From: a virus | Virus record (IMG/VR): IMGVR_UViG_3300006914_000013 | Coordinates: 1 to 64,000 of that record | Strand: one strand, 5' to 3' | DNA: 64,000 nt | In this document: piece by piece, positions 1,255 to 57,887 of the stretch | Layout of the letters: each line of letters opens with the position of its first letter | Position numbering within the stretch: position 1 is the stretch's first letter | Made by a program: the position numbers and the translations under genes | The notes under the pieces: model-generated | The model's input: only the letters and a program-made list of their open reading frames with translations | Told to the model about the DNA's origin: nothing | Database searches by the model: none

Positions 1255-1449
1255 TCAGTCGTCGACGGCTTCCGTCACCGCGACTTTTTCCGCCTGTATG
1301 CGGTTGTAGATTTCTTCGCGATGCACTTCGACGCCCTTGGGTGCGGCAATGCCAATGCGCACTTGCAGGCCGCTGACACCGAGCACGGTGATGCGGATGT
1401 CGTCGCCAACCATGATGGTTTCGTGAACGCGGCGGGTCAGTATCAACAT
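1255..1449 (-). CDS. csrA: CsrA/RsmA family translational regulator
   Basis: [48 protein letters not shown] is the canonical CsrA sequence; ATG at 1449 with AAGGAG/AAGGA SD. Confidence 0.96.
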
Positions 1450-1555: not shown

Positions 1556-2011
1556 TTCAAACCCCTGCTCGTTCCCCAAGGTGGGGGTTACAGCACCCGC
1601 AAAGGACGGCCAGAAGCTGGCCCCTTTTTTGCTCCCACTGGCGTGCGAGCCCCTGCGTCCGGCCCTTGAAAAAAGGCCTTCCACATGACTCCACGCAGTG
1701 GGGATTTTCAGGTCAAAACCTGCTCCCACTCCCAGCTGGCGTTCCGCACCTTCGGGGTTTAGCGTTACAAGCGCCCCCGGCCCGTCTCGGCGTGCGGCAA
1801 GTGTGGGATTTGGGACAGTCGACGGCGCCTGTGTCTGGGTAATACGCCGCCCTGCCATTGCCTTCTCGACCCATTTCGGGGTTCGCACACTTGGCTATAC
1901 CGACCCCCCTAAGACGATGATCCTTGTGGGGGGTTCTACGCACTGCGGCCCAATAGGCGAACGAACGCCCCATCTTGATCCAGACGCGCAATGGAAGGGT
2001 TACGGGGTTGA
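1556..2011 (-). ncRNA. Putative large structured RNA (~450 nt), family unrecognised
   Basis: More than 10 nested complementary segments; several mismatches read as G-U only on the minus strand; no credible ORF. Confidence 0.55.
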
Positions 2012-2022
2012 GGCGGGCATGG

Positions 2023-2052
2023 TTGAACACACGAACAATATTCGCGTATACT
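2023..2052 (+). promoter_or_regulatory. Sigma70-like promoter
   Basis: TTGAAC (2023-2028), 18-bp spacer, TATACT (2047-2052). Confidence 0.55.
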
Positions 2053-2057: not shown

Positions 2058-2168
2058 GACCCGGTCTCGTATCCCGCCGACGAAAGCAGAATTCCCCGAG
2101 ACCTTGACTGGAGGTGCTTGTAACACCCGCCAGTCCGATGAGCCCTCGCCTAACAGCGGGGGCTTTTT
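2058..2168 (+). ncRNA. Putative small RNA (~110 nt)
   Basis: Lies between the promoter and an intrinsic terminator; stems GGTCTCG/CGAGACC and GACTGG..GGTG/CACC..CCAGTC. Confidence 0.5.
2141..2168 (+). terminator. Intrinsic terminator
   Basis: AGCCCTCGC-ctaaca-GCGGGGGCT hairpin followed by a T run. Confidence 0.75.
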
Positions 2169-2505
2169 CGTTTATGGTCAATAGGATACGGAGCATTAGG
2201 GGGTAAAGACAACCAAGCCTCCATCTTTACCCCCCTTGACATTCACAAAAGTGCCATCAAAAGGCCCGTCTTGTCGGACAATTTCTGGCGCCAAAGCCTT
2301 GTCAGAAAAGGTTCCCAGCACAAGCGAAAAAATAGTTAAAAAACTTTCGCGAGGGGGTCAAAACACCCGGTTTTGAGGCCTCTGTTGCCTCGATTTTGAA
2401 GCAACGCAAAATTTTTTCGCGATCCTGACCTAGTCTTAAACCCAAGGCCGCGAGTGTTTCACCCATCCGAAGACGGCCGAGCTGATTTTCTGCATAGGTC
2501 TCCCC

Positions 2506-4993: not shown

Positions 4994-5344
4994 ATGTCTG
5001 CCGAAGAAGAAGCGTTCCAGAAGCTCGCCGCCAGCCTGATCAAACTGCCCTTCAACCCCGCCGTATTGTGTGGCTGGCGGGCGTTTGCGGAATGGTTGGA
5101 AATCCTCTCCGGGCTGAGCCTGGTCACGGACGGCCTAGCCGCCGATGGCCGCGGCCCCGCCGAGTTCATCAAACAGGCCACCGCCTGCGGCTGGGTGCGT
5201 TTCGAACTGACCCGCGAAACCATCATGGTCCGCTCAAAGATCGCCTACACCGTCGAGCCGCAACCGGTGCTGCTGATGCAGTCGACTGGGCTGGACCCGG
5301 ACGAAGTGCGGATCTACGACAGCAAAATTCTACGGCGGGGCTGA
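4994..5344 (+). CDS. Hypothetical protein upstream of terminase
   Basis: Coding-like from MSAEEEAF; ends 1 bp before the next gene; start uncertain. Confidence 0.6.
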   Translation: MSAEEEAFQKLAASLIKLPFNPAVLCGWRAFAEWLEILSGLSLVTDGLAADGRGPAEFIKQATACGWVRFELTRETIMVRSKIAYTVEPQPVLLMQSTGLDPDEVRIYDSKILRRG

Positions 5345-5345
5345 C

Positions 5346-5927
5346 ATGAGCGAACTGTCTGATTTCGACGCGCCGGCCGTGCTCAAAGCGCCGCCGGAAC
5401 CGCCAAAGGCTGAAGGTTTGCAGCCAATGCCGGACGCCCTGGACGGCCCGATTGTGGGCATCAGTCCGCGTTCCGCGATGTTTGCCGAGACCGACATGGG
5501 GCGCACCGCCACCGGCCTGAGCGTGTTCATCCACGACTTCCTGCCGCGCCTGAACAAAGACCAGCTGCACAAGCTGGTGTCCGCCCTGCCCGCTGGCACC
5601 CTGGAAGTGACCGGCCAAGGCTACGGCGCCGACTTCTCGCTGGCCGATGAAATGGGCTTGCAGATCGTCGCGGTGCAGAACCTGCGGCAGCACGTTTTCC
5701 CCAACGGCCACCTGCGCGAAGGCTGCAACGTGCGCGAGGCAAAGGAAGTGCTGACCACCTGCAACATCATGATCAAGACCCTGATGGACAACCACGCCCG
5801 GATCATGTCGATGGAGCGCATGCGCGCCGTCGAAGCGGCGACCGTGGACATCCTGGTCGAGCTGAAAGATGAGCTGAAAGAGCAGTTCCTGGAACGCCTG
5901 CGCGTTCGGCTGGAGGGGCTGCAATGA
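5346..5927 (+). CDS. Probable terminase small subunit
   Basis: Helical 193-aa protein coupled (ATGA) to the large subunit; positional inference. Confidence 0.55.
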   Translation: MSELSDFDAPAVLKAPPEPPKAEGLQPMPDALDGPIVGISPRSAMFAETDMGRTATGLSVFIHDFLPRLNKDQLHKLVSALPAGTLEVTGQGYGADFSLADEMGLQIVAVQNLRQHVFPNGHLREGCNVREAKEVLTTCNIMIKTLMDNHARIMSMERMRAVEAATVDILVELKDELKEQFLERLRVRLEGLQ

Positions 5928-33402: not shown

Positions 33403-33604
33403 CCCGGCGTTCATGGTCCATGCGACAGTCCACATCGCAATAGCGCCCCTCCGTGATGGGCGCCTCGCAGTTCAAACACTCCCCCGTACACGTCGCCATC
33501 ACCTTCTGGTGGTGAGCGGCGGCTGCCCGGTGCTGGCGCAGCAGCAAGTCCTCGATCAGTTCCTGTTCATCCCCGGCGGCATCGGCGGCATCGGTCATGG
33601 TCAA
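33380..33604 (-). CDS. TraR/DksA-like C4 zinc-finger protein
   Basis: N-terminal D.AD.A motif as in TraR; CLNC...YCDVDC. Confidence 0.7.
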   Translation of the reverse strand: MTMTDAADAAGDEQELIEDLLLRQHRAAAAHHQKVMATCTGECLNCEAPITEGRYCDVDCRMDHERRVMSHLRR

Positions 33605-35808
33605 ATCTCCAGCGTGTTGTCGAATACGGTGGCGTCCATTTCCCTGTGCGTCACCATCACCACCTGTTTGCCGCTGCCAGCGAGCAGGGTACTGAAAGCC
33701 AGCGCACGCTCCGGGTCCATGTCGGCGGTCGGTTCATCCATCAGCACCAGGTTCAGCGGCGACAGCGCAGCGGCATCGAGCGCCAGTTGCACGGCGGTGC
33801 CGATGATCGCCAGCTGGGCGCCCGAGGCTTCGGCCTGCTCCATTTCGAAACCGTCCTCGACGAAGGTGAAGGCGCCGTCTTCGCCCCGGCTGATTGACTC
33901 GATCACCCCGCCGGTGGCGTTGCTGGCGAACATCGAGGCGCTGGCCATGAACACGTCCCATACCTGTTTGCTGTAGCGATCACGGTTGCTGCGGATGTGC
34001 CCCAGCAGTTCGGTGAGCAGGCTGACCTTCTGCGCCGCCTGTTCGTGCTGGCGATTGCGCTCGACCACGGTGGCCAGCGTGCGTTCCAGCGCGACCCGCT
34101 GTTCGTGGATGCCGTGCTTGAGGTTGGACAGAACCCCGATCTGTTCCTGCAGGCGGCGGATCTGGCCATCGCAGGCGTCAACCTTCTCGCGGTGATGCCG
34201 CAGGGCGGTGGGCAGGTCGACCCCAACCACCTGGTGCTGGATTTCGGTCTGGTGCAGCTCGGCTTTGGCGTTGGCCAGCCACTGATTGCGCTGCGTGGCG
34301 TTGCCTTCGGCCACGGCCAGCGCCTGGCGCAGGGTGGCTTGGCGCTGCGCGTCCTGCCGGCCGGTGCTGATCTGCGCGTCCAGCGCCTCGATCTGCGGCG
34401 CGAGCGATTCAGCTGGCGGCATCGTCAGGGAGTCACGGGCGGCCTGATCGAGCTGGTCGCTCAGCCGGTTGCACGTCACCTGGTGCAGATGCACCGAGTT
34501 TTCTGCCTGACGCAGACCTTCTTCGACACGGGCCAGGTTCTGGCGGTAGTTGGTTTCGGCCTGCAAGGCGTCCCGGGCCAACTGGGCCGCCGCCAGTTTC
34601 TCGCGCCAGGTCTCTTGGTGCTCGCGCACCTGCTCGGCGTGATCATGGGGGTTGAAGGCGTCAAACGGCCGCTTGCATCCACTGCACACGCCATTCTTGC
34701 CCGCCTCGATCAGCGCTTCCAGCCTGTCGCCTGCGCTTTGCTTGTCGGCCTCGGCCTGCGCGGCGACCATGCGCAGTTCCTCCAGATCCGCCCCGCCTTC
34801 GCGGCGAAACGCCTTGAGGTCGTCGCGGTAGGGCGCGGCTTTCCTGACCGCCGCCTGCAACTCCACCTGGGCTGACTCCAGATCCTGCTGCAACTGCTTG
34901 ACCAGGTTGCGCGCCTGCTTGCCTTCCATGGCCTGCTCGCGCAGATCCTTGAGCTGTAGTTCCAGATCCACCAGGCTTTCGGTGGTCAGCGGGTGCCCGC
35001 GGAACTGCGCGAGCTGCTGCTGGGCGCCTTCCAGTGCGGCCTGACTGGCGGTTGCCTCGCGCTCGGCCTGGCGCAGCGTGGTCACGGCGCCGAACACAGC
35101 GGTTTGCGCCTGAGACAGGCGGCGTTCGTTGTCTTCGCTGATGCCTCGCTGGCGTTTGGCCTCGGTCAGGTCGCTGTTCAGCTGCGTCAGGTCGATGGCC
35201 AGCTGGGTTTCCTCGCCCAGCCAGTTCATCACCTGCACCTGCTGTTCGTCGATGTCGGTCAGGGTCGTTTCATCCTGCAAGAGTTTCCAGGTCTTGAGCT
35301 GCCCCCCTACCCGCTCCATCACCTGACTGACCCGCTCCAGCCCGGTCAGCTCGGTGATGATCTTGAACAACTCAGTGCTGCCCACTTCCAGCAGGGCGCT
35401 GGCCTTGCGCTGCTTGGCGTACTTGATCTGCGCGAAGCGCTTGAGCGGCATGCCCAGCAGGCGGGCGACTGCCTGATTCACTGGCGTGGTGCCGGTGGCC
35501 ACCGGCTGTTCAGTGCCGTCCGGGCACAGCTCGGTCAGGCTGGCGCCGGTCTTGGTGCGCTCGATCCGGTACCGGCCGATGTTGCCGAAGGACAGCCACA
35601 GCGATTGTTTGAACCCGGTGTTGGTGCCCCGGGTTTGCAGACGGGTGCCGGGGACCAGCCGCGCCCCACCCAGGCAGTACAGAATCCCGTACAGCACGGT
35701 GGTTTTGCCCCGGTAGTTCGGCCCTGTCACCCCATTCAACCCAGCGGTGAAGTCCAGCACCAGGTGCTCATGCTTCTTGAAGTTGTTGAGTTCCAGGCGC
35801 TCTAACAT
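33601..35808 (-). CDS. sbcC: SbcC/Rad50-like SMC ATPase
   Basis: GPNYRGKT, coiled coil with CSGC hook, ASGAQ signature, LMDEPTADMD, VTH. Confidence 0.92.
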   Translation of the reverse strand: MLERLELNNFKKHEHLVLDFTAGLNGVTGPNYRGKTTVLYGILYCLGGARLVPGTRLQTRGTNTGFKQSLWLSFGNIGRYRIERTKTGASLTELCPDGTEQPVATGTTPVNQAVARLLGMPLKRFAQIKYAKQRKASALLEVGSTELFKIITELTGLERVSQVMERVGGQLKTWKLLQDETTLTDIDEQQVQVMNWLGEETQLAIDLTQLNSDLTEAKRQRGISEDNERRLSQAQTAVFGAVTTLRQAEREATASQAALEGAQQQLAQFRGHPLTTESLVDLELQLKDLREQAMEGKQARNLVKQLQQDLESAQVELQAAVRKAAPYRDDLKAFRREGGADLEELRMVAAQAEADKQSAGDRLEALIEAGKNGVCSGCKRPFDAFNPHDHAEQVREHQETWREKLAAAQLARDALQAETNYRQNLARVEEGLRQAENSVHLHQVTCNRLSDQLDQAARDSLTMPPAESLAPQIEALDAQISTGRQDAQRQATLRQALAVAEGNATQRNQWLANAKAELHQTEIQHQVVGVDLPTALRHHREKVDACDGQIRRLQEQIGVLSNLKHGIHEQRVALERTLATVVERNRQHEQAAQKVSLLTELLGHIRSNRDRYSKQVWDVFMASASMFASNATGGVIESISRGEDGAFTFVEDGFEMEQAEASGAQLAIIGTAVQLALDAAALSPLNLVLMDEPTADMDPERALAFSTLLAGSGKQVVMVTHREMDATVFDNTLEI

Positions 35809-36098
35809 TACGCGGCCTCCACGACGTGGATGGTCAGGTCGATGTCCATGCGTTCGCCGATTTCCCGGATCGCCCGGCGCAGGCGCTTCAGCGTCTCGGC
35901 GTTGCAGTCATCGAGCGTCACGGCCGAGTAGCCCTGCAGGCTGGCGAGCACGATGCGGCGGCGGATGTAGGCCAGGGTCGCGGTCGGGCCGATGTCCAGC
36001 ACCGCCTTGCCGTTGGCCACGTAGTCCGCGGTGAGCTGGCGCAGCTTGGTGGTTTTGCCGCTGGCCCGTGGGCCACTGATGATGTCCAGTTTCATCAT
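35808..36098 (-). CDS. Small P-loop protein
   Basis: IISGPRASGKTT Walker A; AVTLDD Walker B-like; coupled on both sides. Confidence 0.65.
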   Translation of the reverse strand: MMKLDIISGPRASGKTTKLRQLTADYVANGKAVLDIGPTATLAYIRRRIVLASLQGYSAVTLDDCNAETLKRLRRAIREIGERMDIDLTIHVVEAA

Positions 36099-37186
36099 GC
36101 TTCCTCTTCTTGCAGGGAGGGCGCGGTGTCGGCCCAAAAGGCGTCAAACAGCTCGACCAGCTCGGGGCGCTTGATCAGCTCGGCGCGGATCTGCATGTCC
36201 AGCTGGTGGAAATCGTGGTCGGCCAGCGTCTCGCCGGTGCCCGGCTTGATCACCTCGGCGGTGTTGCGCACGGCCAGCGGTGCCCAGCTCTGCCAAATCT
36301 TGCGCACGGCGCGGGCCAGATCCATCACCTGACTGGCCTGCAACTCGCCGCTGATTTCGATGAACTGCGCGCCGTTTTCCTCATCGAAGTTGAAGTCCGG
36401 GGCGACCAGGTCGTTCACGTCCAGGTGCAGGTAGCCAGAATCGCGGTGCCATACCGTGTGGAATTCGTGCTTGCCGTCCGGGCGGATCAGCATCACGCGC
36501 TTGTCGGTGATGTCGCCGAAGCCGGTCGGGTGGGTGTTGCCGAGGATCACCACGCGGCCATCGAAGTCCTCGCGGGGATGGTGGTCGTGGCCGACCAGGA
36601 TGTAATCGAAGCCAGCATCGAGCAGCTGCTTGGCCTGCTTGCGGCTGAGCGACAGCGCGGTGTCGTCGGTGGCAAAGCCCGAGTCGTAGTTGCAGTGGAC
36701 ACACAGGTAGGCCTTGGTCCCGGCCACCTTGCCGCGCACCCAGTTCTCGGCGGCGGCCAGCGATTCATGGAAAAGCTTGTCGGTGCTGTGGTGCGGGATG
36801 AACAGGAAGGACACCCCGGGGCGCACGTCGTGAAGAAAGCCCCGGGCCTCGCCGAACGGTGTCAGCTGGATCACCCCCGGCCGGGCCTTGTCCATCAACT
36901 GCAAGGTGCCGAGGCGGCCCCGGTCGTTCACCAGGTCGTGGTTGCCCGCCATGATGTAATCCACCATGTCGGCCAGGCGCATCCCCTGCCAGATCACGTC
37001 TTCCGGGTTGGTGAAGCGGTCGAACAGGTCGCCCAGGCAGGCCTTGATCGCATGCGGAAAGCTATCGACCAGCCCACGGTTGTGGTAGTAGATCCCGTCC
37101 CGTAACCGGCGGCGGCTGTCCAGGGTGGTGTGGGACACCAGATTCTTGCCCAGGTGCGGGTCGGTGAAGACAAGGATGTCGGTCAT
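36095..37186 (-). CDS. sbcD: SbcD/Mre11-like metallophosphoesterase nuclease
   Basis: TDPHLG, GDLFD, GNHD, GHDH motifs. Confidence 0.92.
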   Translation of the reverse strand: MTDILVFTDPHLGKNLVSHTTLDSRRRLRDGIYYHNRGLVDSFPHAIKACLGDLFDRFTNPEDVIWQGMRLADMVDYIMAGNHDLVNDRGRLGTLQLMDKARPGVIQLTPFGEARGFLHDVRPGVSFLFIPHHSTDKLFHESLAAAENWVRGKVAGTKAYLCVHCNYDSGFATDDTALSLSRKQAKQLLDAGFDYILVGHDHHPREDFDGRVVILGNTHPTGFGDITDKRVMLIRPDGKHEFHTVWHRDSGYLHLDVNDLVAPDFNFDEENGAQFIEISGELQASQVMDLARAVRKIWQSWAPLAVRNTAEVIKPGTGETLADHDFHQLDMQIRAELIKRPELVELFDAFWADTAPSLQEEEA

Positions 37187-37680
37187 CTGAAAACCTTCTT
37201 CGCGGTGTACCGCGGGTTGTGCAAAAGTGCGGCGGTAAAGGCAGCCTTGAACGCCTCAAAGTCGGGGAAGGTGTCGCAGATCCCTTCGGCCTTGAGGCGC
37301 ATGTGGGGCGCGTGGCGGACGTGGGCGACGGCTTCCCCGTCCCACAGCTCGATCGCCCCGGTGCTTTGCTGCCAGAACAGAACGTGGGTACTGGCGCCGG
37401 CTCGCGCCCAAATTTTCAGGTGGGCGGCCTGGTGGTTGCCCAGCAGCTTCGACAGGCCGGCGGTCAGGCTGCTATGCACCTCGCTCGACTTCAGTTCGAA
37501 CAGGTGGCAGATCCCCCTGAAACAGGCGATCGTGTCGCCCGGCTGGTCCGGCAGGAAGGCGCCGGCCGAGTGCGTGTCATAGAACCGGGCGCTGGCCAGT
37601 GGGTGTTTCTGCATCAGTTCCTTGAGGAACAGCCGAAACGCTTCTTCGAACTCCTTGCCCTTCTCTTGAGGTGTCTTCAT
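37183..37680 (-). CDS. PD-(D/E)XK nuclease, probable Holliday junction resolvase
   Basis: GKEFE...PGD.....FELKS (RecU/Hjc-like). Confidence 0.75.
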   Translation of the reverse strand: MKTPQEKGKEFEEAFRLFLKELMQKHPLASARFYDTHSAGAFLPDQPGDTIACFRGICHLFELKSSEVHSSLTAGLSKLLGNHQAAHLKIWARAGASTHVLFWQQSTGAIELWDGEAVAHVRHAPHMRLKAEGICDTFPDFEAFKAAFTAALLHNPRYTAKKVFR

Positions 37681-38957
37681 TTGCTGATCGCCAGAATCCG
37701 ACGTGGGCGGGTGCAGGCCACGTTCAGGCACTGCAAGGATTCGATGTAGTTTCGGTTGAGCAGGATGTCGGCCGAGTCCACGAACACACTCTCGTAGGTC
37801 GACCCCTGTGCGCGGTGCGCGGTGATGGCGTGGCTGGGGCGCACGTCATGGATGACTTCCTTGGCCTTCCAGAAGGCTGGCCAGCCCCCGCTGCCGGTCT
37901 TGGCGCGTTCCGACAGTTCGTTGAGCAGGCGCTTGTAAGCCCGTTCGGATGTCTGGTGGATGACCCAGCAGGTCACCAGCATGTGGTCATCCATTTCCGG
38001 GCGGACTTCGACGCGGTAGCAGGTCAGTTCGCTGTACATCGGGTGCTGCTGCACGTCGATGGAGAACACCGTGCCTTCCTCGTCGGTGGTCATCAGCGTC
38101 TCTTTGCCGTCCACCGACATGATCGGCTGGCACACCACCACCCGTTCGCCCGGCTGGAACGGCGCCTCGGCGGCCAGCTTGGCGCCGTACATGGCATCCC
38201 GGATCAGGGCGTTGTACATGGCCACGGTGTCGTTACGCCACGCGATCACCTTGATCGAGCCCGGATCGGCCCGGTAGCTGTCGCTGTTGAACGCATCCAC
38301 CGCCTTTTTCCGCAGGCGCTTGTAGTCGAGCAGGTAGACCCCGCCGCGTTCATCGTTGGCGCTGAACAGGTTCAGGGCCTCGCCGTGCAGGATGCAGTCG
38401 CGCATGTGCGTGGCAAAGGTCAGGATCTGGTTGTCGTGGCGCTCGACCTTGTCCAGCTGCCAGCGGTTCTCGATGTCGAACACCTCTGAGCGTTCTTCTC
38501 CCACTGGCGGCAACTGGGTCACGTCGGCCATGAACAGGAACTTGACGCCTTCGTTCTTGGCAGTGCGCTTGATGTGGTACATCAGCCCCGAGTTCGACAT
38601 CGAGCCTTCATCGACCACCACCACCTGGTAGTTGCTGGCCTGGTTGAAGGCGTCGGCGGCTCGCACCTGGCGCACTTCCCCGCTGTTGTCCATGCGCAGG
38701 CCGAGCAGGGAGTAGATCGTGCGGCACGGGACCAGCCCCTGCAGCTCGGTCTCGCACATCTGCTTGAGCACCTTGGTCGCCTTGTTGGTCGGCGCGGTGA
38801 ACACCACGCTTTGGTCCGTCTCGCGGGCGAAGGTCTGCGCGCTGGTGGACTTGCCGGTACCGGCGCGGCCATCGAGCAGGAAGAACGAATCGTCGCTCTC
38901 GGCAAACTCCAGCATGCGGTCGACGCCGCCGCGCTGGTCACTGTTCAACTGGATCAT
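37677..38957 (-). CDS. Dda/RecD-like SF1B helicase
   Basis: GRAGTGKS, APTNKA, VDEGSM, QLPPV, AITAHRAQGSTY. Confidence 0.92.
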   Translation of the reverse strand: MIQLNSDQRGGVDRMLEFAESDDSFFLLDGRAGTGKSTSAQTFARETDQSVVFTAPTNKATKVLKQMCETELQGLVPCRTIYSLLGLRMDNSGEVRQVRAADAFNQASNYQVVVVDEGSMSNSGLMYHIKRTAKNEGVKFLFMADVTQLPPVGEERSEVFDIENRWQLDKVERHDNQILTFATHMRDCILHGEALNLFSANDERGGVYLLDYKRLRKKAVDAFNSDSYRADPGSIKVIAWRNDTVAMYNALIRDAMYGAKLAAEAPFQPGERVVVCQPIMSVDGKETLMTTDEEGTVFSIDVQQHPMYSELTCYRVEVRPEMDDHMLVTCWVIHQTSERAYKRLLNELSERAKTGSGGWPAFWKAKEVIHDVRPSHAITAHRAQGSTYESVFVDSADILLNRNYIESLQCLNVACTRPRRILAISK

Positions 38958-41900
38958 GCTAACCACCCCTCTTTGGCCCACTTGTCGAACAGCGCTTCAA
39001 CCTTGCGTTGCGACGGTCGATCCCCCAGTTCGTTTTTGCTCGCGTCGTACCAGTTCCGGCCGACCGACACCTCGGCCAGCATCGGGATCGGGTGCCCCGG
39101 CGGCGTGATGTTCATGATGTCTTGGGCGCGCTGGGCGAATTCGAAGACGTTGTCGATCGGCACGCTGTTGACCAGCTCGTCGTACACCGGCGCGATCAGG
39201 TGGGACTGGGTTTCTTCGTAGAGGCGGGTGTGGTGGGCTTTGGTCAGCACCACTTTCAGGGTGTCGGCGGCGGCGCCCTGGATCTTGTGGTTGACGGTTT
39301 GGCGCTCGGCCCGGGACCGCAGCGAGCCGTCGCGGCTGAGAATGTTGGGGTCGACATGCTTGCGCGTGCCGAAGGCGGTGGTGATGTACCCCAGCCGCTT
39401 GGCCTGGTCGGTGGTTTCCTTCTGCCACGGTGCCAGGCGCGGGTAACCGGCGAACACGCCGTCGATGATTTGCTGGGCGAAGCGCTCAGGCACCCCGAGT
39501 TTCAGGGCCATCGAGAACGCCTGACCGCCGTAGATAATCAGGAAGTTCACGGTCTTGGCCATCTTGCGGATCTTGACGATGGTTTTGCCCAGCGGCAGCG
39601 CCAAGTCGCCGACCAGCTCATAGACGTGGTCGCCTTCCTGCAGCAGGCTGACGAACTGTTCATAGTTCATGCTGCCGGTTTCATCGAACGCCAGGCGCTT
39701 GAGGATTTCCGGCCCCATGGCCTGTTCCAGCACCTTGCCAGCGAAGGTACAGGCGGTGACCGAGTGGATGTCCTTGAAGATCGAGCGGGTCATGCCGTGG
39801 TCGTCGACGTAACTGCCGCCGCCGGTGTAGGCCTCGATCAACACCGGGTCGCGGGCTTCACTGCCAGCCAGGCGCAATTCCTGCCCGCTGAAGTCCAGGG
39901 CGACGATCACATGCCCCTTGAACCGCGGCAGAAAGATCGAGCGCAGCGGCCCTTTGCTCACGGCGAGGATGTTCAGGCTGGAACCCGCCGGGCGGCGGGT
40001 CTTGGTGCCACAGTTGCGGGTACCCGGGTGGACCACGCCAGTGCTCGGGTGCCGCCAGTGCGGGTACTTGGCGTAGTACAGGGACTGGCGGGTCATGCAC
40101 TTCTTGGTGTCGATCAGCAGCGTCAACAGCTCGCGGCGCCAGTCCCCTTCCGGGCAGTCCTCGGCGATCGCCGCGTTCATCGCGTCTTCGTTGGTCGACG
40201 GGTTGCCTTCCAGACCCAGCTGATCGCGCTGGCTGTCCTTCTGCGGGAAGGTGCGCAGGCGCACCGGCAGCTGCAACTTGCAATACAGCAGTTCCTGCAT
40301 CTGCTTGGGGCTGCCGAGGTTGAGTTCGTCACCCTCGATCACGCGCACGCCGTCCTGGTGCAGCACCTCGGTTTCAATGAAGGCTTTCAGGGCCAGGAAC
40401 GCCGCGCCTTGGCGCTTGCGAATCTCCCCCGCCGCTTCCTGCACCAGGTCGACCAGCGTGCGGGCACGCGGATCGGTGCTGCCGTGCTGTTTCAGGTGGT
40501 GCCGACTGGACATCAGCCAGGCGGTGACGCCCTTGCCGCTGACACTCTCCATCGTGATCGGCAGCCCGACCTTCTCGGCCACGCGGGTAAACCCCTTCTC
40601 CGTGGCGATGAACTCGGCCGGGGTAAAGGTCTCGGTGTACGGGTGATAGACCGAAGCCAGCCGCCAGCGCTCATAGGATTCCGCCACCTTGGCCTGCGCC
40701 TGTGAGCGGTTCAGCCCGGCAAACAGGTGCAGCTTGAGCAGGTTGTCGCCCTCGGCCTTCTTCAAACCTTCGGCGCCGACATTGCTGATCTGGCTGCAAT
40801 GGGTGGCCAACAGGCCATGGATGGCCGTGGTGTTCCCTGCCACCCGCGCCGCGTCGGCCTCGGCCAGTTCGCTCAAGGTCTCAAAGCCCAGCTGCACGCC
40901 GACCTCAAAGCTGCGGTTGAAGCGGTGCAGGGTGTAGCGATCCTCTTCGTAGGCGAACACCCATTGCTTTTCCAGCTTGAGGATCAGCCAGAACAGGGTG
41001 GCCAAGCGCGCCGCGACGAAGCTGTCATCACAGGCGTAGTGGGTGACCTGCTCGCCGGTGAGGTCGCGCATGTCGCGGGCGCCGTACTGCGCCAGCAGAT
41101 CCTTGTACTCGACCTGGTCGTACTTCAACCAGTGCCGGGCGTGCGCCTTCAAGCCCTGCTCCAGGTTCTCATCGACATAGCTGCCGAGCATCTGCGTGCA
41201 GACTGGGCCGTCGAGCTGGAAATTCAGGCACTGCTTGGTGACCTGTTCTTCGAACCGGGCGTTGTGCGCGACGAAGTCCAGGCGGGCGTCCTCGATGTCG
41301 ACCAGCAGGTTGACCAGTTCGCCCTGGTCCAGGTTGTCGGTGTTCTTGTGCAGCACCGGCAAGTAGAAGGTGTGTTGCAGGTTGCTGCCGTAGGTGAACG
41401 ACCCGCCGGTCAGGCGCTGCGACAGCACGTCGACGTAGCCACGGGCGGTGTCCGGCAGGGCTGCCGACCAGTCATGCCCGAGGCTGTCGTAGGTTTCATA
41501 GTCGAAGCTGGCCAGCGGGGTGTCGCGCAGGCCTTCGACGTAGGCGGCGTGTACCTGCGGCCAGTTCTCCGGCGTCACCAGGGTCATGGTCGGCATGTGC
41601 GGGGCGAAGTGTTCGAACAGGCTCGGGTCGCCAGCCAGGGTCAGCAGGTCCTGCACCTTGGTCGCGTCCGGTAGGCGCACGTACCACTCCGGCCGGATGA
41701 TCGTGCGACCCTGCGCCCCATACAGCAGCTCCGGGTGCAGCCCGGCGAGGGTGTACATCAGGCGCCAGGTGCCGCGGCTCTCGTAGATTTTGCGCAGCAC
41801 CTTGCAGCTGGTGGCTTCACACGCTTCCAGCAGAAAGGTGTAGTCGTTGCTGGCCACGCAGGCTTCCAGCTGCTCGATGCCGTCCCAGCCGTAGGTGTCG

Positions 41901-42520
41901 ACCAGGAACTTGAACGCCACCGGCCCGACCTGCGGCACGCCGCCGTATTCGTCGGTCTTGTCCCCCACCAGGGACTTGTAGATCCGCACGTAGCGGGTTG
42001 GGTAGCCTTCGAAATCGTCCGCCGGGAGGTTCTTCACCAGCACGGTGGTGTTGTCGTCGTTGAGCTGGGACAGGTCGCGGTCGACCGTATGCACCAGCTT
42101 GAGCACTTCCGGGAACTGGCGGCAGAAGGCGCCAATCACGTCGTCCGCTTCCACGCCTTCGACGCGCACGTTGAAGGCGCCAGCGTAGGCCAGCAGTGCC
42201 TTGGCCATGTCGAACATCTTTTTCAGCTGGGCTTCGACCGCCGGGTCTTTCTCTTCGGCGTGACGCTTGGCCTTGTATTCCGCGAACAGGCTTTCGCGGA
42301 AGGTGTTGCCCCCATCCCACACCGCAATGATGTTGAGGGGGGAGAAATCAGACAGCAGGGGAATGATGTAGGTGTCCAGGAACCCGCGCAAACCGTAGCC
42401 GGCAGAGTTCACCGGCTTGTCAGTCAGGGGGCTGAGTTTTGCGTCGGGGTCAGTGCCCCGGTGGTAGGCGTGCAGCAGCAAGCCGCGCACATCGAGCAGA
42501 GCAAGTCCATTCAGTTTCAT
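38954..42520 (-). CDS. polA: Family A DNA polymerase with 5'-3' and 3'-5' exonuclease domains
   Basis: EADDVI/GDKTD..GGVP.VG (5' nuclease); FDYET, HNARFE, YACDD (exo); DFSGQELR, KTVNFLIIYG, QGAAAD, VYDE (pol). Confidence 0.95.
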   Translation of the reverse strand: MKLNGLALLDVRGLLLHAYHRGTDPDAKLSPLTDKPVNSAGYGLRGFLDTYIIPLLSDFSPLNIIAVWDGGNTFRESLFAEYKAKRHAEEKDPAVEAQLKKMFDMAKALLAYAGAFNVRVEGVEADDVIGAFCRQFPEVLKLVHTVDRDLSQLNDDNTTVLVKNLPADDFEGYPTRYVRIYKSLVGDKTDEYGGVPQVGPVAFKFLVDTYGWDGIEQLEACVASNDYTFLLEACEATSCKVLRKIYESRGTWRLMYTLAGLHPELLYGAQGRTIIRPEWYVRLPDATKVQDLLTLAGDPSLFEHFAPHMPTMTLVTPENWPQVHAAYVEGLRDTPLASFDYETYDSLGHDWSAALPDTARGYVDVLSQRLTGGSFTYGSNLQHTFYLPVLHKNTDNLDQGELVNLLVDIEDARLDFVAHNARFEEQVTKQCLNFQLDGPVCTQMLGSYVDENLEQGLKAHARHWLKYDQVEYKDLLAQYGARDMRDLTGEQVTHYACDDSFVAARLATLFWLILKLEKQWVFAYEEDRYTLHRFNRSFEVGVQLGFETLSELAEADAARVAGNTTAIHGLLATHCSQISNVGAEGLKKAEGDNLLKLHLFAGLNRSQAQAKVAESYERWRLASVYHPYTETFTPAEFIATEKGFTRVAEKVGLPITMESVSGKGVTAWLMSSRHHLKQHGSTDPRARTLVDLVQEAAGEIRKRQGAAFLALKAFIETEVLHQDGVRVIEGDELNLGSPKQMQELLYCKLQLPVRLRTFPQKDSQRDQLGLEGNPSTNEDAMNAAIAEDCPEGDWRRELLTLLIDTKKCMTRQSLYYAKYPHWRHPSTGVVHPGTRNCGTKTRRPAGSSLNILAVSKGPLRSIFLPRFKGHVIVALDFSGQELRLAGSEARDPVLIEAYTGGGSYVDDHGMTRSIFKDIHSVTACTFAGKVLEQAMGPEILKRLAFDETGSMNYEQFVSLLQEGDHVYELVGDLALPLGKTIVKIRKMAKTVNFLIIYGGQAFSMALKLGVPERFAQQIIDGVFAGYPRLAPWQKETTDQAKRLGYITTAFGTRKHVDPNILSRDGSLRSRAERQTVNHKIQGAAADTLKVVLTKAHHTRLYEETQSHLIAPVYDELVNSVPIDNVFEFAQRAQDIMNITPPGHPIPMLAEVSVGRNWYDASKNELGDRPSQRKVEALFDKWAKEGWLA

Positions 42521-42553
42521 GTTGCACCCCGTTCCTCGGACGACAAGAGAGAG

Positions 42554-42579
42554 TGCCAGCGGGCAAACGCCCGCTGGCA
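42554..42579 (-). terminator. Hairpin between ssb-like gene and polA (weak terminator)
   Basis: Perfect 11-bp stem TGCCAGCGGGC/GCCCGCTGGCA with pyrimidine-rich tail on the minus strand. Confidence 0.6.
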
Positions 42580-42600
42580 AACCACAGCTAGCCGTGAGGC

Positions 42601-43487: not shown

Positions 43488-45020
43488 TTATGCGACGTTG
43501 TAAAAGTGCCGCAGGGTGCGAGGGTCGAGGGTCACTTGCCCGATGTCCCCGTCACGCTTGAGCATGTTGCGGATCGCGTTGGGCGCTAGGGTTTCCAGCG
43601 CCTTCAACACGTAAATGTTGCATTGCCAGAGCTGGCCCGGCCGGACCACACGGTCCATGGCCTGCTTGAATTCCCCCGGCGAGCCAGTCGGTTCGGCAAA
43701 GATCACCGTGTGACTGACCCCTTGAAAGTTGAAGCCCGCCCCGGCGGATCGTGGGTTGGCCACCAGCAGGCGGCAGGTCGGGTCGTGCAGAAACTTCTCG
43801 GTCATCGCCTTGCGCTGAGTCGGGGACAGGTCACCGTTCATGGTCGCCGGGTTCAGGTCGGCGAAGAACTCGGCGTACCGCGCCACGGTCTCGCGGAAGT
43901 TGACGAACAGGATCACCTTGGAATCCGCAGTGTGCGCCGTGGCCAGATCGCGGCAGGTGGCGAGCACCTGGTTGTCGACCTTGCTGCCCTCGGGCAGGAA
44001 CAGTTCCGGGCAGGTGACGATCTGCAACGTCTTCTGGCGCAGTTCCTGTTCCTGCAGGGCGGAAAGAATGGTGCCGTCGCCGAAGTCGATGAAGCGCTCG
44101 ATGGTGAGTCTGCGGTACACCTCGCGGTGTGCCGGGCTCAGCCTGACCGCTACTTCGGTGATGATTGGCTCTTTCAGGTCGCGCAGTTCCGGGATCTGGC
44201 TTTTCAGCACACGTCGGCAGCGGGCATACAGGTTGGCCGACAGCTCGGCGTGCCGCTGGTAGCCCACCAGTTCCTTGACCCGGCTGATGCGCTTGCCGCT
44301 GGTGGTGACTTTCGGCACCTTCAAGCGGATCAACTTGTAGCGGCAGTGCCGGCGGCAGAAGTGGTCGTAACTCAGGTACGCCCCAGGGCTCATGAAACTC
44401 AGCAGGGTGTAGCAGTCGGTCAGGTAGGTGTGCATCGCCGTGCCGGTCATGGGGAAGAACGCGGTGTCCGGCTGGGCCGGGTCGCCGACGTACTCACCAA
44501 TGCGCTTGGCCAGCGTGCTTTCCGGCGCCTTCCACTTCTGGCTTTCGTCCGTGATCAGCACGTCGTAGCCCTTTTCCTTGAGCAGCTTGCACAGCTTCTG
44601 GTGGGCGAACAGCTCGTAACTCATGACCACCATTTCTGGCCAGCCTTCGTTGTCCCACTTCTCGATCAGCTTGGCGCGTTTGGCCGGTGGCTCATCGAGC
44701 ACATGGACCCGCACGTACTTGTCGACGCCCTGGAACTCTTCGATCACCGACTCGGCGAACTGGTAGATCAGGGTGGCCAGCGTCAGCACCACAACCTTGT
44801 TGCCCAGCCCGATGTAGTGCAGGGCCGCACCCACCACGGGAATCGACTTGCCTGCACCGGTTTCGTCGAGCAGGCCGAACCACTGGTAATGCACGCACAG
44901 GCTCAGGCCTTCGACCTGCGACTGGAACGGGGTGTGCTTGAGCTGCACGAACGGGGCGAACGATGGGTACCGCTCGATGCCAGCGCGCTGGAAGTATTCA
45001 GCTAGTGTAGGAGCCGTCAT
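43488..45020 (-). CDS. SNF2-like SF2 helicase
   Basis: DETGAGKS, ITDESQ, MTGT, SAGAGFNFQ, QAMDRVVRPGQ; ATG 45020 with GGAGG SD. Confidence 0.92.
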   Translation of the reverse strand: MTAPTLAEYFQRAGIERYPSFAPFVQLKHTPFQSQVEGLSLCVHYQWFGLLDETGAGKSIPVVGAALHYIGLGNKVVVLTLATLIYQFAESVIEEFQGVDKYVRVHVLDEPPAKRAKLIEKWDNEGWPEMVVMSYELFAHQKLCKLLKEKGYDVLITDESQKWKAPESTLAKRIGEYVGDPAQPDTAFFPMTGTAMHTYLTDCYTLLSFMSPGAYLSYDHFCRRHCRYKLIRLKVPKVTTSGKRISRVKELVGYQRHAELSANLYARCRRVLKSQIPELRDLKEPIITEVAVRLSPAHREVYRRLTIERFIDFGDGTILSALQEQELRQKTLQIVTCPELFLPEGSKVDNQVLATCRDLATAHTADSKVILFVNFRETVARYAEFFADLNPATMNGDLSPTQRKAMTEKFLHDPTCRLLVANPRSAGAGFNFQGVSHTVIFAEPTGSPGEFKQAMDRVVRPGQLWQCNIYVLKALETLAPNAIRNMLKRDGDIGQVTLDPRTLRHFYNVA

Positions 45021-47820
45021 AGCCACCTCCCCCGCCGAGCAGGCTGATGTCGATGTTCTTGCCCTGCATTTCTTTGAGGGACAGGTAGAGCATCGCACGG
45101 CCCCCGCCTAACCCGGCGTGTGGCGCGTATTTGATGAAGTAGGGTTCTTCGTTGATCAATTTGGTGAACTGCGCCCCGCTGCTGATCACTGGCGCGGTGC
45201 GTTCCTCGACGGTGCAGTAGCGGGTGTAGGCGGCGTGACCCAGCACCGGGTCGAGGATCAGGTACTCCGGTGTCACTGCGTAGTGTAGGCCTTCCACCAG
45301 ATGCACGTAGCCCTGCCCCGCTTCCTGTGTGCTGCGCGAAATGGCCACGATGATCGCGAGCTTTTGCAGCACCAGGTCGATTTCGCTCTGCACATAACCC
45401 TGGTCCGGGGCATCGAAGCGGCCGATCACCGCGTCAATGATTGGCCCCAAAGTTTTCAGTGACTGGAACAGGTGCAGTTCCTCGCACACCGCCTGCAACA
45501 GCCACAGCCCGACCAGCACCACCTGCTGCGAGTAGCGCGGGCGGTCGTCCATTTCCCGGGGCAACAGGGCCGACGCCTTGTTCATCAGGGCTTCGATTTC
45601 CTCGGGCGTGGTGGTCAGGGACTTGGCCATGAGTGCCTTGCCGAGTCGGCGCAGGTGTTGACGCCCCTCGCTGGCCTTAAAGAACGGCTCGCGGCAGTTG
45701 CCACGCTTCTGCTTGGTCAGGTGTACGCGAATGCTGCGTTCCTGAATCGCGGGGATTTCAATCTCTTGCTCGGAAATCACCAGCAGCGGCGAGGACAGGG
45801 GGATGGCCACCGCTTCGGCGCCGGTGCGGCCCATGCCCCGGCCGAGCCGACCTTTCAAGGTGGACTCGGCGTTCCACGCCTGCTTGATCCGTTCGCCCAC
45901 GTCCTTGTAGGCATGGCTGGTCATCTTGGATTTGTTGAATTCTTCGATGATCCGGGGAACCGTGGTGGTGCTCGACAGGTAGTCGAGCATCCCGTAGGGC
46001 GAGGTCGACGGGGCGCTGACCCCGGAGTCCTTGAGCATGTAGTCGGTGCCGTTGAGCCAGGTGACCAGGCCTGCGGTCTTCGACTTGCCGGAACCGGCGC
46101 TGCCCCACAGGCACAGGATCGGAAACTGGCTGTAGAGGTACATCAGGTGCGTCTTGAAATGCGCCGCGATGCTCCAGCCGATCATCATGCCGACTTCGTG
46201 CCTCTGGTTGATCCTGAGCAGGTTGTCCAACGTCTTGTCCACGTCCTGGTCCGCCCGTTCGGGCATGGTGGTGTGCGCGAGGTAAGGACGGGCCACCAGG
46301 TTGCCGAGAAACTGGTGGGTGCCGCGCACCTTGACCGTGTTCACCGACATATCGGGTTCGACATAGGTGAACAGCGGGATGTCATCGACGAAGTCCATGT
46401 GAACCCCGGCGGTGTAGACCTGGAAAATTTCTCCCACGTCCTGAGCCTCCCGGAAAATTGCGAGTTTGATTTTCTGAATCTCCAGATCGGACCCCTGAAA
46501 CGTCAGGTCAGTGAGGCCTTCCAGCTCTTTCAGAAACGCCGAGCGGCTGGCGAAGGCCGCTTCTTTGAAAAGGATCTTGGCCAGCTCGTTGCCGTCCTTC
46601 ATCACCGACATGCGGGTGCCGACCCGGCGCGGGGCGGTGCCGTCCTGCGGCACGTCAATGAACACGTCAATCGGCAGCATGGTGAAGTTGCTGATGCGGC
46701 GCTTGCCGTCGCCGAGGCGGATGTAATAACCGTCCGGTTCAACCACGGCGCACAGCCCGGCGTCCTGATCGCCGCCCTTGTTCGCCCCGGCCTCGATCGC
46801 GCAGCCTTCACACGGGCGCTTGCTGAGCAGGGCGCGGATCGCGTTGCAGCCAAAGCTGAACGTCGGGGTGTGCTCGACGTAGCGGATCTGCGCCTCGATG
46901 TGGTCGCGGCGCAACTTGGCGGTGTTGTACTTGCTCGACTTCGCGCTGCTGGCCAGCCGCGCCGCGAGGCTTTCGCTCACCGTCTGCGACACCCCGGCGC
47001 GCACGATGTACGCCGCCAGTTGGGTCGCGGCCTGGTTGTAGGACGCATCGGCTTTCAGGGAATCGCTGTCACACAGCATCTGGATGCAGGTCGGTACCGG
47101 CTCGCGGATCGCTTCCATGTCGGCGGATGACGCTATGATCACCAGCTTCGGCTTGGCGTTGACGCGCTTCTTGGCCTCTTCAAACATGGCCTTGAGTTCA
47201 TGCACCACCAGCCCCTGCGGGTCGTCGACTTCCACCACGCGGGGCGCCTTCACCAGTTCGCGGTAGCCGTCCACCGTCAGCTGTTCTAGTTCCTCGGCGC
47301 TGACCGGCACCCGGTACTTACCGTCATGGCGTTGCAGGTTGACGATGCGGAAGCTGTTGCCCCGGCCGCTGCTGTACACGGAATAGTCGAGGCCGATCAC
47401 GAACAGGTCGCGGGCCATTTCCTTGTAGATTTCCGGCAAGCGCAGGGTGAAGCGGCGGGCACCAAACAGGCTTTCGTTGACCAGGACGTGCAGGCCCTTG
47501 CTACCCGAGAGAAAGATTTCGATGCAGCCTTTCGGCACGCCCATGCGGGTCAGCTTGCCGATCAGTTCCTGCCCGCTGGCGATGGCCTGGGCCAGGTCAT
47601 CCTTGCAGTCGATGTCGAAGTACAGCGGGCCACGGTAGCCGATCTTGTCGCGGTTGCGCGGCAGCTCGGCCTCGGTGCCATCGTTGACCATCTGGTTCAG
47701 GGCGAGGATGGTCAGTTTCTTCGCACCCTGCGCCTTGGCCAGCTCCACCGGGTTCTCTTCACCCTGGCTGGAGAGCAGAAACCAGGCGTCGTGTTCCGAA
47801 CGCTGATAGTAATGGTACAT
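44998..47820 (-). CDS. AEP-type primase fused to P-loop helicase (DUF927-like)
   Basis: LYFDIDC, SGSKGLHV, LD.SVYS..R..FR AEP motifs; Cys cluster; GSAGSGKS Walker A. Confidence 0.85.
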   Translation of the reverse strand: MYHYYQRSEHDAWFLLSSQGEENPVELAKAQGAKKLTILALNQMVNDGTEAELPRNRDKIGYRGPLYFDIDCKDDLAQAIASGQELIGKLTRMGVPKGCIEIFLSGSKGLHVLVNESLFGARRFTLRLPEIYKEMARDLFVIGLDYSVYSSGRGNSFRIVNLQRHDGKYRVPVSAEELEQLTVDGYRELVKAPRVVEVDDPQGLVVHELKAMFEEAKKRVNAKPKLVIIASSADMEAIREPVPTCIQMLCDSDSLKADASYNQAATQLAAYIVRAGVSQTVSESLAARLASSAKSSKYNTAKLRRDHIEAQIRYVEHTPTFSFGCNAIRALLSKRPCEGCAIEAGANKGGDQDAGLCAVVEPDGYYIRLGDGKRRISNFTMLPIDVFIDVPQDGTAPRRVGTRMSVMKDGNELAKILFKEAAFASRSAFLKELEGLTDLTFQGSDLEIQKIKLAIFREAQDVGEIFQVYTAGVHMDFVDDIPLFTYVEPDMSVNTVKVRGTHQFLGNLVARPYLAHTTMPERADQDVDKTLDNLLRINQRHEVGMMIGWSIAAHFKTHLMYLYSQFPILCLWGSAGSGKSKTAGLVTWLNGTDYMLKDSGVSAPSTSPYGMLDYLSSTTTVPRIIEEFNKSKMTSHAYKDVGERIKQAWNAESTLKGRLGRGMGRTGAEAVAIPLSSPLLVISEQEIEIPAIQERSIRVHLTKQKRGNCREPFFKASEGRQHLRRLGKALMAKSLTTTPEEIEALMNKASALLPREMDDRPRYSQQVVLVGLWLLQAVCEELHLFQSLKTLGPIIDAVIGRFDAPDQGYVQSEIDLVLQKLAIIVAISRSTQEAGQGYVHLVEGLHYAVTPEYLILDPVLGHAAYTRYCTVEERTAPVISSGAQFTKLINEEPYFIKYAPHAGLGGGRAMLYLSLKEMQGKNIDISLLGGGGGYDGSYTS

Positions 47821-47834
47821 GGCCCCGCCCCCGC

Positions 47835-48086
47835 TTACTTGCTGCCCTTGACTTTGCCCAGTTGCAATTGGTCGAGCAGGCGGTCGAACGCCCGGACAGG
47901 CACGGCGCGATAGCGCGGCGAGGTCTTTTCGGTGAGCCAACCGGACACGCTGTCACGGGCATAGCCGGTGAACCGAGCCAGGTCGACATGGGTGAGGTTG
48001 TGCTTTTCGATGATGTGACGGATGAACAAAAGGCGTTCGTCGTCAGTCAATTTTTCGCCGGTCGTAGGAAGGAAATGCGGATTCAT
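47835..48086 (-). CDS. HTH (Xre/Cro-like) DNA-binding protein
   Basis: LTHVDLARFTGYARDSVSGWL helix-turn-helix. Confidence 0.75.
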   Translation of the reverse strand: MNPHFLPTTGEKLTDDERLLFIRHIIEKHNLTHVDLARFTGYARDSVSGWLTEKTSPRYRAVPVRAFDRLLDQLQLGKVKGSK

Positions 48087-57007: not shown

Positions 57008-57253
57008 TTAAAGCCCCCCGTAGCCGTCTTTTTCCAGCGCGACCTTGATCAGCCCGCTGATGGTTTTCGGCCCGGCGGCGGTGTCCTTGTTCGACAGGCG
57101 GCGGGTTTCCAGTTCACGGATCATCGACTTCGGCAAGCTGATGGTGATCGAGGCCGGGACATCTTTCTCGCCGTCCCCCGCCACACCCGCCAAGCGTTTG
57201 GCCAAGTCCCCAGCGATCTGCGCTTGGCTTTTCTCTGCCTCTGCCTTACCCAT
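57008..57253 (-). CDS. ParG-like ribbon-helix-helix partition protein
   Basis: 81 aa overlapping the parA 3' end; ITISLPKS..RELE...TISGLIK.AL. Confidence 0.7.
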   Translation of the reverse strand: MGKAEAEKSQAQIAGDLAKRLAGVAGDGEKDVPASITISLPKSMIRELETRRLSNKDTAAGPKTISGLIKVALEKDGYGGL

Positions 57254-57887
57254 AAAACACCTCGTCCAGTAGTTCGTTGATTTCTTCTTTGGCTTTGTTG
57301 CTGCCGCACTCCAGCACCGACAGCCCCTTTTTCATGCTGCTTTTGTAGATTTTGCGGTAGCGCCCGACGCTGTTCAGCACCTCAAACTCGGGGTACGGCA
57401 GCAGGGCTTCAAGGAATTCCGCACGCTCGATGACCCTGCCTTGGGCGTGGGTTTCGCCGAACGTCTGATAGATCAGGACGCGCAGTTTCGGGTTCGACGG
57501 CGAAATCTCGGCGTACTGCTTGCGCAGGCGCTTGAGCGTGTCGGTGTCCAGTTCACTGCATTGCAGCGGGCAGATGACTATGTCCGCCACGCACATCGAC
57601 GTGATCAGTTCCGTGCTGTTGTGCCCGGCCACGTCGATCAGCACATGCTCGTACTTGTCGGCCAGGTTGGCGACGGCGTTCACCAGGTTGCCGTACTTCT
57701 GCGCGTGCGGGACCACCGGCTGGTGTTCGGCGGCTGCCCGGTTGCCGTGCCAGAGGTGACAACTGCCCTGCCCATCACCATCGAGCACGACCACGTCCTT
57801 GCCTCTAATCGTCAGACCGATCGCGAGGTTCATGCAGGTGGTCGTCTTGCCCACCCCACCCTTGTTGCTGCCCACGACAACTTTCAT
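57246..57887 (-). CDS. parA: ParA Walker-type partition ATPase (short, type Ib)
   Basis: KGGVGKTT, LDGDGQGS, LIDVAG; no N-terminal HTH. Confidence 0.92.
   Translation of the reverse strand: MKVVVGSNKGGVGKTTTCMNLAIGLTIRGKDVVVLDGDGQGSCHLWHGNRAAAEHQPVVPHAQKYGNLVNAVANLADKYEHVLIDVAGHNSTELITSMCVADIVICPLQCSELDTDTLKRLRKQYAEISPSNPKLRVLIYQTFGETHAQGRVIERAEFLEALLPYPEFEVLNSVGRYRKIYKSSMKKGLSVLECGSNKAKEEINELLDEVFYG

Follow-up and report, generated by a model that had tools for sequence, protein, structure and literature searches.

The RNA motif PAGEV (RF03037) was named by Weinberg 2017 as plasmid-associated, with one copy lying in a predicted replication origin, for which a paper on the plasmids of Pseudomonas syringae ES4326 is cited (PMC5737381). 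The passages on PAGEV in the main text of that study give no mechanism for it and mention neither RNA I, RNA II nor ColE1, and among the literature matches listed it is the sole relevant paper on PAGEV RNA. Origins built on RNA have been described in the MRB plasmids of the Vibrionaceae, whose ~500-bp origin has no Rep gene and produces an RNA II of ~465 nt that ends at the edge of the homology region, together with a 68-nt antisense RNA I of two stem-loops near the RNA II 5' end, and the origin contains an inverted repeat bordered by runs of A and T (Le Roux 2011, PMC3035462). The sections of Ares-Arroyo 2021 that deal with MRB treat it as ColE1-like (PMC8683028). In phages, extrachromosomal mycobacteriophage prophages are described as using RNA-based origins together with parABS, a transcribed region without a protein-coding gene being necessary and sufficient for replication in the plasmid state (Wetzel 2020, PMC7157519); no report of PAGEV or MRB-type origins in phages appears among the literature matches listed. 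Here we analyse a PAGEV RNA and its surroundings upstream of the csrA gene of a tailed phage, in a window of 64,000 nucleotides that makes up the first 64 kb of virus record IMGVR_UViG_3300006914_000013 (84,385 bp, 120-bp terminal repeats, rated complete, 62% G+C).

We consider it likely that positions 1624-2212 of the window are a protein-independent, RNA-based replication origin of the plasmid type, in the style of ColE1. A preliminary description of the sequence had delimited 1556-2011 as an unrecognised, highly structured RNA in the size range of ROOL and GOLLD, possibly of a new class. The stretch is instead a structured RNA of the known family PAGEV, not a new class: a sensitive Rfam scan of 1400-2560 matched the family above its cut-off (66.6 bits, E 1.2e-15, the gathering score being 61.1), with all 185 model positions aligned to 253 nt of the window, and returned no ROOL or GOLLD match at E up to 10. 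The match is unique in the 84-kb genome according to a genome-wide covariance search, and a PAGEV copy in a phage is a new setting for the family. A default gathering scan of the whole 64-kb window had given no Rfam match, missing PAGEV, and a related phage contig (L009) has the module yet shows no PAGEV match of any kind, so negative Rfam scans of such inserts are unreliable. The parts of the proposed origin are these:

1737-1989, minus strand: PAGEV RNA core (RF03037), matched by covariance model above the gathering score
1624-2175, minus strand: candidate RNA II (pre-primer), ~550 nt, with a predicted 5' end set by the candidate promoter and a predicted 3' end set by the point where homology stops
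2183-2212, minus strand: candidate RNA II promoter, TTGTCT, 18-nt spacer, TATCCT, read by eye, 8 of 12 positions of the sigma-70 consensus, start ~2175
2058-2172, plus strand: candidate RNA I, ~113 nt, from promoter and terminator scans, antisense to the first ~115 nt of RNA II
2023-2052, plus strand: RNA I promoter, sigma-70-like, TTGAAC, 18-nt spacer, TATACT, 9 of 12 matches in a consensus scan
1634-1702, minus strand: long 3' hairpin of RNA II (consensus helix 17), 19 pairs, 98.5% paired, 5 compensatory
1600-1640, minus strand: putative RNA-to-DNA switch region (oriV) at the limit of homology, with an A6 run at 1625-1630 and a hairpin at 1608-1622 in the phages

The conserved unit occupies 2173-1624 on the minus strand, and its homology to plasmids ends sharply on both sides, at 2173 and at 1622-1630, the latter boundary being seen both in plasmids and in L009. 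Because of these boundaries the unit measures ~550 nt and not the 456 nt first delimited, which took in 1556-1623, outside the conserved RNA, and omitted ~160 nt at the 5' end (2012-2173). When 44 viral contigs encoding a CsrA relative were compared with the gap in the window, 7 shared this DNA: five over the whole gap at 87-89% identity, L009 over 2212-1630 at 81%, and one further csrA contig in short pieces only. The PLSDB plasmid collection yielded 12 matching records, every one from Pseudomonas and with the match in unannotated DNA. These records, together with a Vibrio plasmid described below, agree with the family's known occurrence in gamma-proteobacterial plasmids and predicted origin regions, and PAGEV scores 104-115 bits in the small Pseudomonas plasmids. 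With a profile of the unit, full-length copies were detected in phage contigs as well as in 11 contigs from genomes, 10 of them small Pseudomonas contigs (P. fragi, P. lundensis, P. saxonica, P. helleri, P. paraversuta, P. kulmbachensis and three other species) and one labelled Pedobacter; these 11 were confirmed among the best 80 of 86 loci, 86 being the number of stretches matched in a pattern scan of genomes. The sequences fall into three clades: the phages; plasmids of the P. fragi type, whose identity to the phage sequences is 64-70%; and pPMA4326D, at 55-59%, which comes from the plasmid set cited by Weinberg 2017.

Among viral sequences, a first pattern scan gave 28 stretches, 7 of which had PAGEV above the cut-off, and a second gave none above it in the 47 searched of 50 stretches. 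Seven weak matches of 20-25 bits from the second scan were rejected as apparent coding DNA with third-position changes, and one locus (L006), which has the terminator region alone in common and reading frames where the RNA would be, was set aside as uninformative. A DNA search of the intergenic region against a phage collection gave no match. The Pseudomonas phages Lana and PMBT3, which have the closest cultured terminases (32% identity), likewise showed no PAGEV match, a negative of little weight, given that G002 does have the module and yet is missed by that first-look filter too.

Some homologues have arrangements of their own. The P. fragi plasmid pLKYC.ZH (9,180 bp, L047) contains two full module copies in the same orientation, at 476-1008 and 5227-5762, that are 93% alike, which suggests that two small replicons have joined in a co-integrate. 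In the 76.9-kb pA62H2 the copy is truncated to profile positions 59-373. A record filed as a complete virus (G019, 17,462 bp, with terminal repeats) has a diverged module that includes the RNA I region, with PAGEV at 82 bits and no csrA in the loci examined (L081 and L070); it may be a plasmid filed as a virus.

Folding and covariation point to an RNA read from the minus strand. In agreement with the preliminary description, no reading frame is conserved in 1556-2011, the longest stop-free frames differing in strand, frame and place among 14 homologues. The minus strand is more stable than its shuffled versions (-204.7 kcal/mol, z -2.99, 0 of 100 shuffles as good), whereas the plus strand is not set apart from its shuffles (z -1.19, 15 of 100 as good). 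RNAalifold on 14 sequences returned 119 pairs with 96.0% of cells paired. Thirty-three pairs changed on both sides, compared with 15.6 +/- 1.9 in column shuffles (0 of 500 reach 33) and with 3-9 compensatory pairs in a control in which partners were slid by 1-3 columns; the phage clade alone, with six sequences, retained 10 compensatory pairs and 95.8% pairing. The consensus fold of the 14 homologues reaches -123.9 kcal/mol on the minus strand versus -98.8 on the plus strand, and G-U cells outnumber A-C cells by 251 to 13, a count that leans toward the strand that was folded. Together the fold z-score, the covariation and the G-U count bear out that the minus strand specifies a large and structured non-coding RNA in the same orientation as csrA. 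Within the PAGEV core, helices 8, 14 and 16 changed on both sides in 6 of 7, 4 of 6 and 3 of 4 pairs, with 99-100% of cells paired.

The 15 helices listed from the single sequence are all complementary in the window, but only about half hold across homologues. All ten aligned sequences, plasmids included, keep 1792-1797/1744-1749, 1804-1808/1730-1734 (with 4-5 of its 5 pairs), 1903-1934 and 1821-1851 in their outer parts, and 1697-1730 in its outer six pairs. Helix 1661-1678 is present in the six phage-clade rows but only partial in the four plasmid rows, 1869-1882 holds in the phage clade, and 1959-1966/1567-1574 is kept in close phages only. The long-range helices 2004-2009/1560-1565, 1944-1948/1597-1601 and 1883-1890/1641-1648 are already broken in relatives 87-90% identical and were not confirmed. 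The G-rich word AGTGGGAGC occurs twice, at 1722-1730 and 1631-1639, the second copy lying in an arm of the 3' hairpin. Both AGTGGGAGC copies are able to pair with CCCACT at 1696-1701, and the first also with a C-rich stretch at 1988-2005. Because these mutually exclusive helices are all conserved, a conformational switch like that of ColE1 is possible.

Opposite the 5' end of this RNA lies a predicted plus-strand RNA of ~110 nt, which is the putative antisense partner of the PAGEV-containing RNA. Read from alignments, a -35/-10 pair occupies the corresponding columns in the plasmid clade and pPMA4326D as well. Two stem-loops (~2063-2103 and ~2106-2135) are followed by a terminator at 2140-2165 with a U tract, and the terminator hairpin is kept in all three clades with three different sequences. 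The consensus fold of 13 RNA I sequences has 17 pairs, 8 of them compensatory. The Rfam RNAI model gave a weak full-length match at 2056-2171 on the plus strand (24.4 bits against a gathering score of 47), and weak RNAI matches fell at the same place in five of nine other loci (25.5-27.4 bits). On the minus strand, both hexamers of the candidate RNA II promoter are kept in the phage clade, including L009, its most diverged member, and the predicted RNA II start near 2175 falls exactly at the onset of homology.

The link between PAGEV and RNA II is suggested by a 195-kb plasmid of Vibrio campbellii, NZ_CP026317.1, which Ares-Arroyo 2021 names as a ColE1-type co-integrate in an account where co-integration of ColE1-type origins is described as common (PMC8683028). 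This plasmid contains three PAGEV copies within 20 kb (loci L176, L177 and L178): two exceed the cut-off, with 113.4 and 77.6 bits, and the third is weak, with 18.5 bits. Just upstream of the first copy there are an antisense promoter and an inverted repeat bordered by runs of A and T. Since the inverted repeat matches the description in Le Roux 2011, this PAGEV plasmid shows an MRB hallmark; and because antisense promoter and MRB-like repeat occur there together, PAGEV is most simply the core of RNA II. The connection of PAGEV with an origin in NZ_CP026317.1 is one of layout and not of origin coordinates from Ares-Arroyo 2021.

In the mechanism we propose, host RNA polymerase would transcribe a pre-primer RNA II of ~550 nt leftwards from ~2175, with PAGEV, whose fold is observed, in the central part. 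By analogy with ColE1, the folded 3' domain of RNA II would remain hybridised to the template near 1600-1640, a region that we place as the RNA-to-DNA switch from ColE1 and from the 3' end of MRB RNA II (PMC3035462). After processing, the RNA would be extended by a DNA polymerase of family A, either DNA polymerase I (Pol I) of the host or the phage's own, and leading-strand synthesis would head toward csrA. RNA I, whose conserved promoter, stems and terminator are the observed part of the scheme, would pair with the 5' end of nascent RNA II and thereby control copy number and incompatibility, by analogy with ColE1 and MRB plasmids. Such an origin probably keeps the phage in the state of a plasmid prophage, with a possible further role in starting lytic replication; csrA is a clade-specific neighbour standing outside the mechanism.

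Several plasmid homologues have no recognisable initiator gene. A 4.48-kb P. fragi plasmid has eight coding sequences of 82-142 amino acids, among which Pfam finds ParE and a ribbon-helix-helix protein and no replication-protein family, and neither pPMA4326D nor pA4J1 has an annotated Rep. The REP fragments of pA4J1 and of pA22BJ2 are described as replicating in Pseudomonas (Romaniuk 2019, PMC6896180). Two other candidate relatives were dropped: the P. fragi plasmid pNI10/pNI105 encodes a rolling-circle Rep-like protein (PMC3930321), and the VBR1 replicon is described as protein-based and is unrelated (PMC12753305).

The gene content of the phage bears on how such an origin might be used, and the relevant genes are as follows:

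38954-42580, minus strand: Pol A, 1208 amino acids, with 5'-3' and 3'-5' exonuclease domains, from a domain search
44998-47940, minus strand: primase, 980 amino acids, part of the phage's own replisome and repair set
33601-38981, minus strand: superfamily 1 (SF1) helicase and an SbcC/SbcD-like pair, of the same replisome and repair set
57246-57968, minus strand: ParA, from a domain search
73041-73712 of the record, beyond the window, minus strand: serine resolvase/invertase, 223 amino acids, with HTH_7, the only recombinase found

Further genes encode a DNA methyltransferase, an endolysin and a terminase that is at most 32% identical to those of cultured phages, and no tyrosine integrase (Phage_integrase) was found in the phage genome. 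The 223-amino-acid resolvase could resolve plasmid multimers or invert a segment. Since Pol I, primase and ParA are present and an integrase was not found, this virus, with its structural and maintenance genes, may be a phage-plasmid; and a role of the origin in a plasmid prophage is probable because ParA and a small resolvase are accompanied by no detectable integrase.

A number of observations weigh against an RNA-primed origin at this locus. Contigs of three soil metatranscriptome runs (X18-X20) contributed one 53-nt piece over 1624-2173, the uncovered part being uninformative, and an RNA-labelled run that covers 1718-2565 (X3) is probably DNA. The RNA II promoter is weak (8 of 12) and was not called by the consensus scan; the RNAI score of 24.4 is far under the cut-off of 47, and weak RNAI matches (E up to 1) also arose in 9 of 14 control genomes. 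The primary sequence resembles that of the Vibrio loci only over ~90 nt of the PAGEV core, and the mechanism of MRB RNA II has itself not been worked out (PMC3035462). In its account of Antarctic Pseudomonas plasmids, Romaniuk 2019 calls all of them, pA4J1 included, iteron-type with predicted rep genes (PMC6896180). In the phage, GC skew tracks gene orientation without an origin signal, no ParB_N domain or recognisable adaptor protein was found and ParA lies ~28 kb from the module, and the phage has its own primase, helicase and polymerase, with which another origin could serve replication.

In the alternative that stands up best, the PAGEV RNA is tied to the origin without being its primer and regulates or recruits replication or partition factors, or acts as single-stranded DNA, and replication is initiated by some other route. 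The discussion of plasmid-associated motifs in Weinberg 2017 leaves open roles as single-stranded DNA or as regulators (PMC5737381), the role of MRB RNA II is uncharacterised, and the phage encodes a primase of its own. We nevertheless think this alternative unlikely, as the asymmetry of G-U over A-C and the strand-specific fold favour an RNA from one strand, the 4.48-kb plasmids are without a recognisable initiator, and an antisense RNA over the 5' end fits the control of a primer as in ColE1 and MRB.

The module could also have been captured from a small plasmid by recombination and be inactive in the phage, or only interfere with resident plasmids through RNA I. Truncated (pA62H2) and duplicated (pLKYC.ZH) copies do occur in plasmids, where ColE1-type co-integration is common. 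Capture without function is quite unlikely, however, in that phage-clade members diverged to 79-83% identity have retained the complete unit with its two promoters and terminator, and ten compensatory pairs have arisen within that clade; cross-inhibition is disfavoured because RNA I of the phages has other stems and loops than RNA I of the plasmids.

The two remaining alternatives centre on csrA, whose position and immediate surroundings are as follows:

1255-1449, minus strand: csrA, Pfam CsrA at 87.4 bits and PHROG CsrA-like regulator, ~175 nt downstream of the RNA module
1500-1556: patch rich in A+T (64-72% in 25-nt steps), between the module and csrA

With csrA transcribed leftwards and a first plus-strand gene that begins at 2506, the RNA sits in a gap of ~1 kb between divergent genes. 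The gene follows the module in 8 of 8 phage-clade records, the window and seven related ones, and is absent from the plasmids. This constancy, the shared strand, the short distance and the failure to find a consensus promoter or strong terminator between the two would suit a csrA mRNA that has this stretch as its long structured 5' leader or as a cis-regulatory element. Such a leader is very unlikely, since conservation stops at ~1624, well before csrA, the module also occurs in plasmids without csrA, and only 7 of the 44 viral csrA loci share any of this DNA. The AT-rich patch may be an unwinding region or the csrA promoter.

The preliminary description had further suggested that about ten GGA triplets could let the RNA interact with CsrA. 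Ten are indeed counted on the minus strand of 1556-2011, while shuffles average 9.6, with ten or more in 240 of 500; A-N-GGA occurs once (shuffle mean 1.8), and 10 of the 12 GGAs of the unit touch a paired column. A new class of large trans-acting phage non-coding RNA that titrates CsrA through GGA motifs, as the triplets and the adjacent gene had hinted, is scarcely credible: a CsrA sponge finds no support because GGA is not enriched, most of the triplets lie in stems, Rfam assigns the RNA to PAGEV, and the ~550-nt module has homologues in plasmids without csrA.

Other features of the neighbourhood touch the proposed origin less directly. No DnaA box within one mismatch was found in 1400-2400. 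Between the RNA II promoter and the late genes, an inverted repeat with an 11-bp stem (~2200-2237), followed by TTGACA, is kept in the phage clade; Rfam gave just a weak, chance-level IhtA match for this region (2199-2284). Contigs matching 2452-2600 on the plus strand at 100% come from three soil metatranscriptome runs of two studies and all start at 2452-2458, one of them bearing adapter sequence at that end. The transcript of the plus-strand (lysis and virion) operon may begin at this position, which precedes the first gene by ~50 nt.

An RNA-based origin, the reading we prefer, would give an orphan Rfam motif a testable mechanism, in which a Rep-less origin uses a primer RNA with PAGEV as its core, and would extend RNA-based replicons to small Pseudomonas plasmids; in its treatment of the Pseudomonadales, Ares-Arroyo 2021 asks whether distant ColE1-like variants circulate there unseen (PMC8683028). 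Shared by a tailed phage and small cryptic plasmids, the ~550-nt module may be the sign of a phage-plasmid lineage invisible to protein-based searches. If active, the module would provide a compact Pseudomonas vector origin with tunable incompatibility. A more far-reaching picture can be drawn, which we regard as speculative and, taken as a whole, doubtful: the ~84-kb Pseudomonas-type phage lineage would consist of plasmid prophages on an initiator-free, ColE1-like origin, with a PAGEV primer made by host RNA polymerase and extended by phage Pol I, RNA I would set copy number and coexistence with related phages and small plasmids, and csrA would either be a Rop-like helper in the contact of RNA I with RNA II or be dosed by read-through of RNA II.

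Set beside the systems described to date, the locus probably works in the manner of MRB and ColE1, an analogy of layout that stops short of strict membership in either. With the Rfam PAGEV family it has the core helices in common, and these covary; it differs in that the unit is ~550 nt long, extending ~185 nt upstream and ~110 nt downstream of the 253-nt match, in phage-specific insertions within the match, and in its carrier, an 84-kb tailed phage instead of a plasmid. The likeness to MRB plasmids of the pB1067 type lies in a long RNA II overlapped near its 5' end by an antisense RNA I with its own promoter and terminator, in a Rep-less region of ~500 bp, and in an RNA II 3' end at the edge of homology; here the layout is predicted and the plasmid homologues are without a recognisable Rep. 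RNA I is ~113 nt with three stem-loops in our locus versus ~68 nt with two in MRB, the hosts are Pseudomonas-type and not Vibrionaceae, and in place of the ~110 bp of RNA I and promoter sequence shared among MRB plasmids, the unit profile matches the Vibrio loci only at 186-276, the PAGEV core. For these comparisons pB1067 was taken from its published description, and sequences were compared with the Vibrio PAGEV loci.

As in ColE1 and pMB1, which are described as having a ~550-nt pre-primer and a ~110-nt antisense RNA of three stem-loops that ends where RNA II begins (PMC8683028), the candidate RNAs here comprise a ~550-nt RNA II and a three-stem-loop RNA I of ~113 nt, a likeness of form and not evidence of homology. 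The difference from ColE1 and pMB1 is that no significant sequence or profile match was found, RNAI scoring 24.4 bits against a cut-off of 47, and a Rop search, whose control was uninformative, gave no match. In ColE1 the rop gene is placed just downstream of the origin on the same strand. A gene for a small dimeric RNA-binding protein thus lies downstream on the same strand in both cases, Rop there and CsrA here, which we offer as an analogy only. The extrachromosomal mycobacteriophage prophages, likened here by description, have unrelated hosts and origins proven by experiment, whereas the origin proposed here is predicted from layout and covariation; like them, this virus is a tailed phage with a partition gene and no integrase found.

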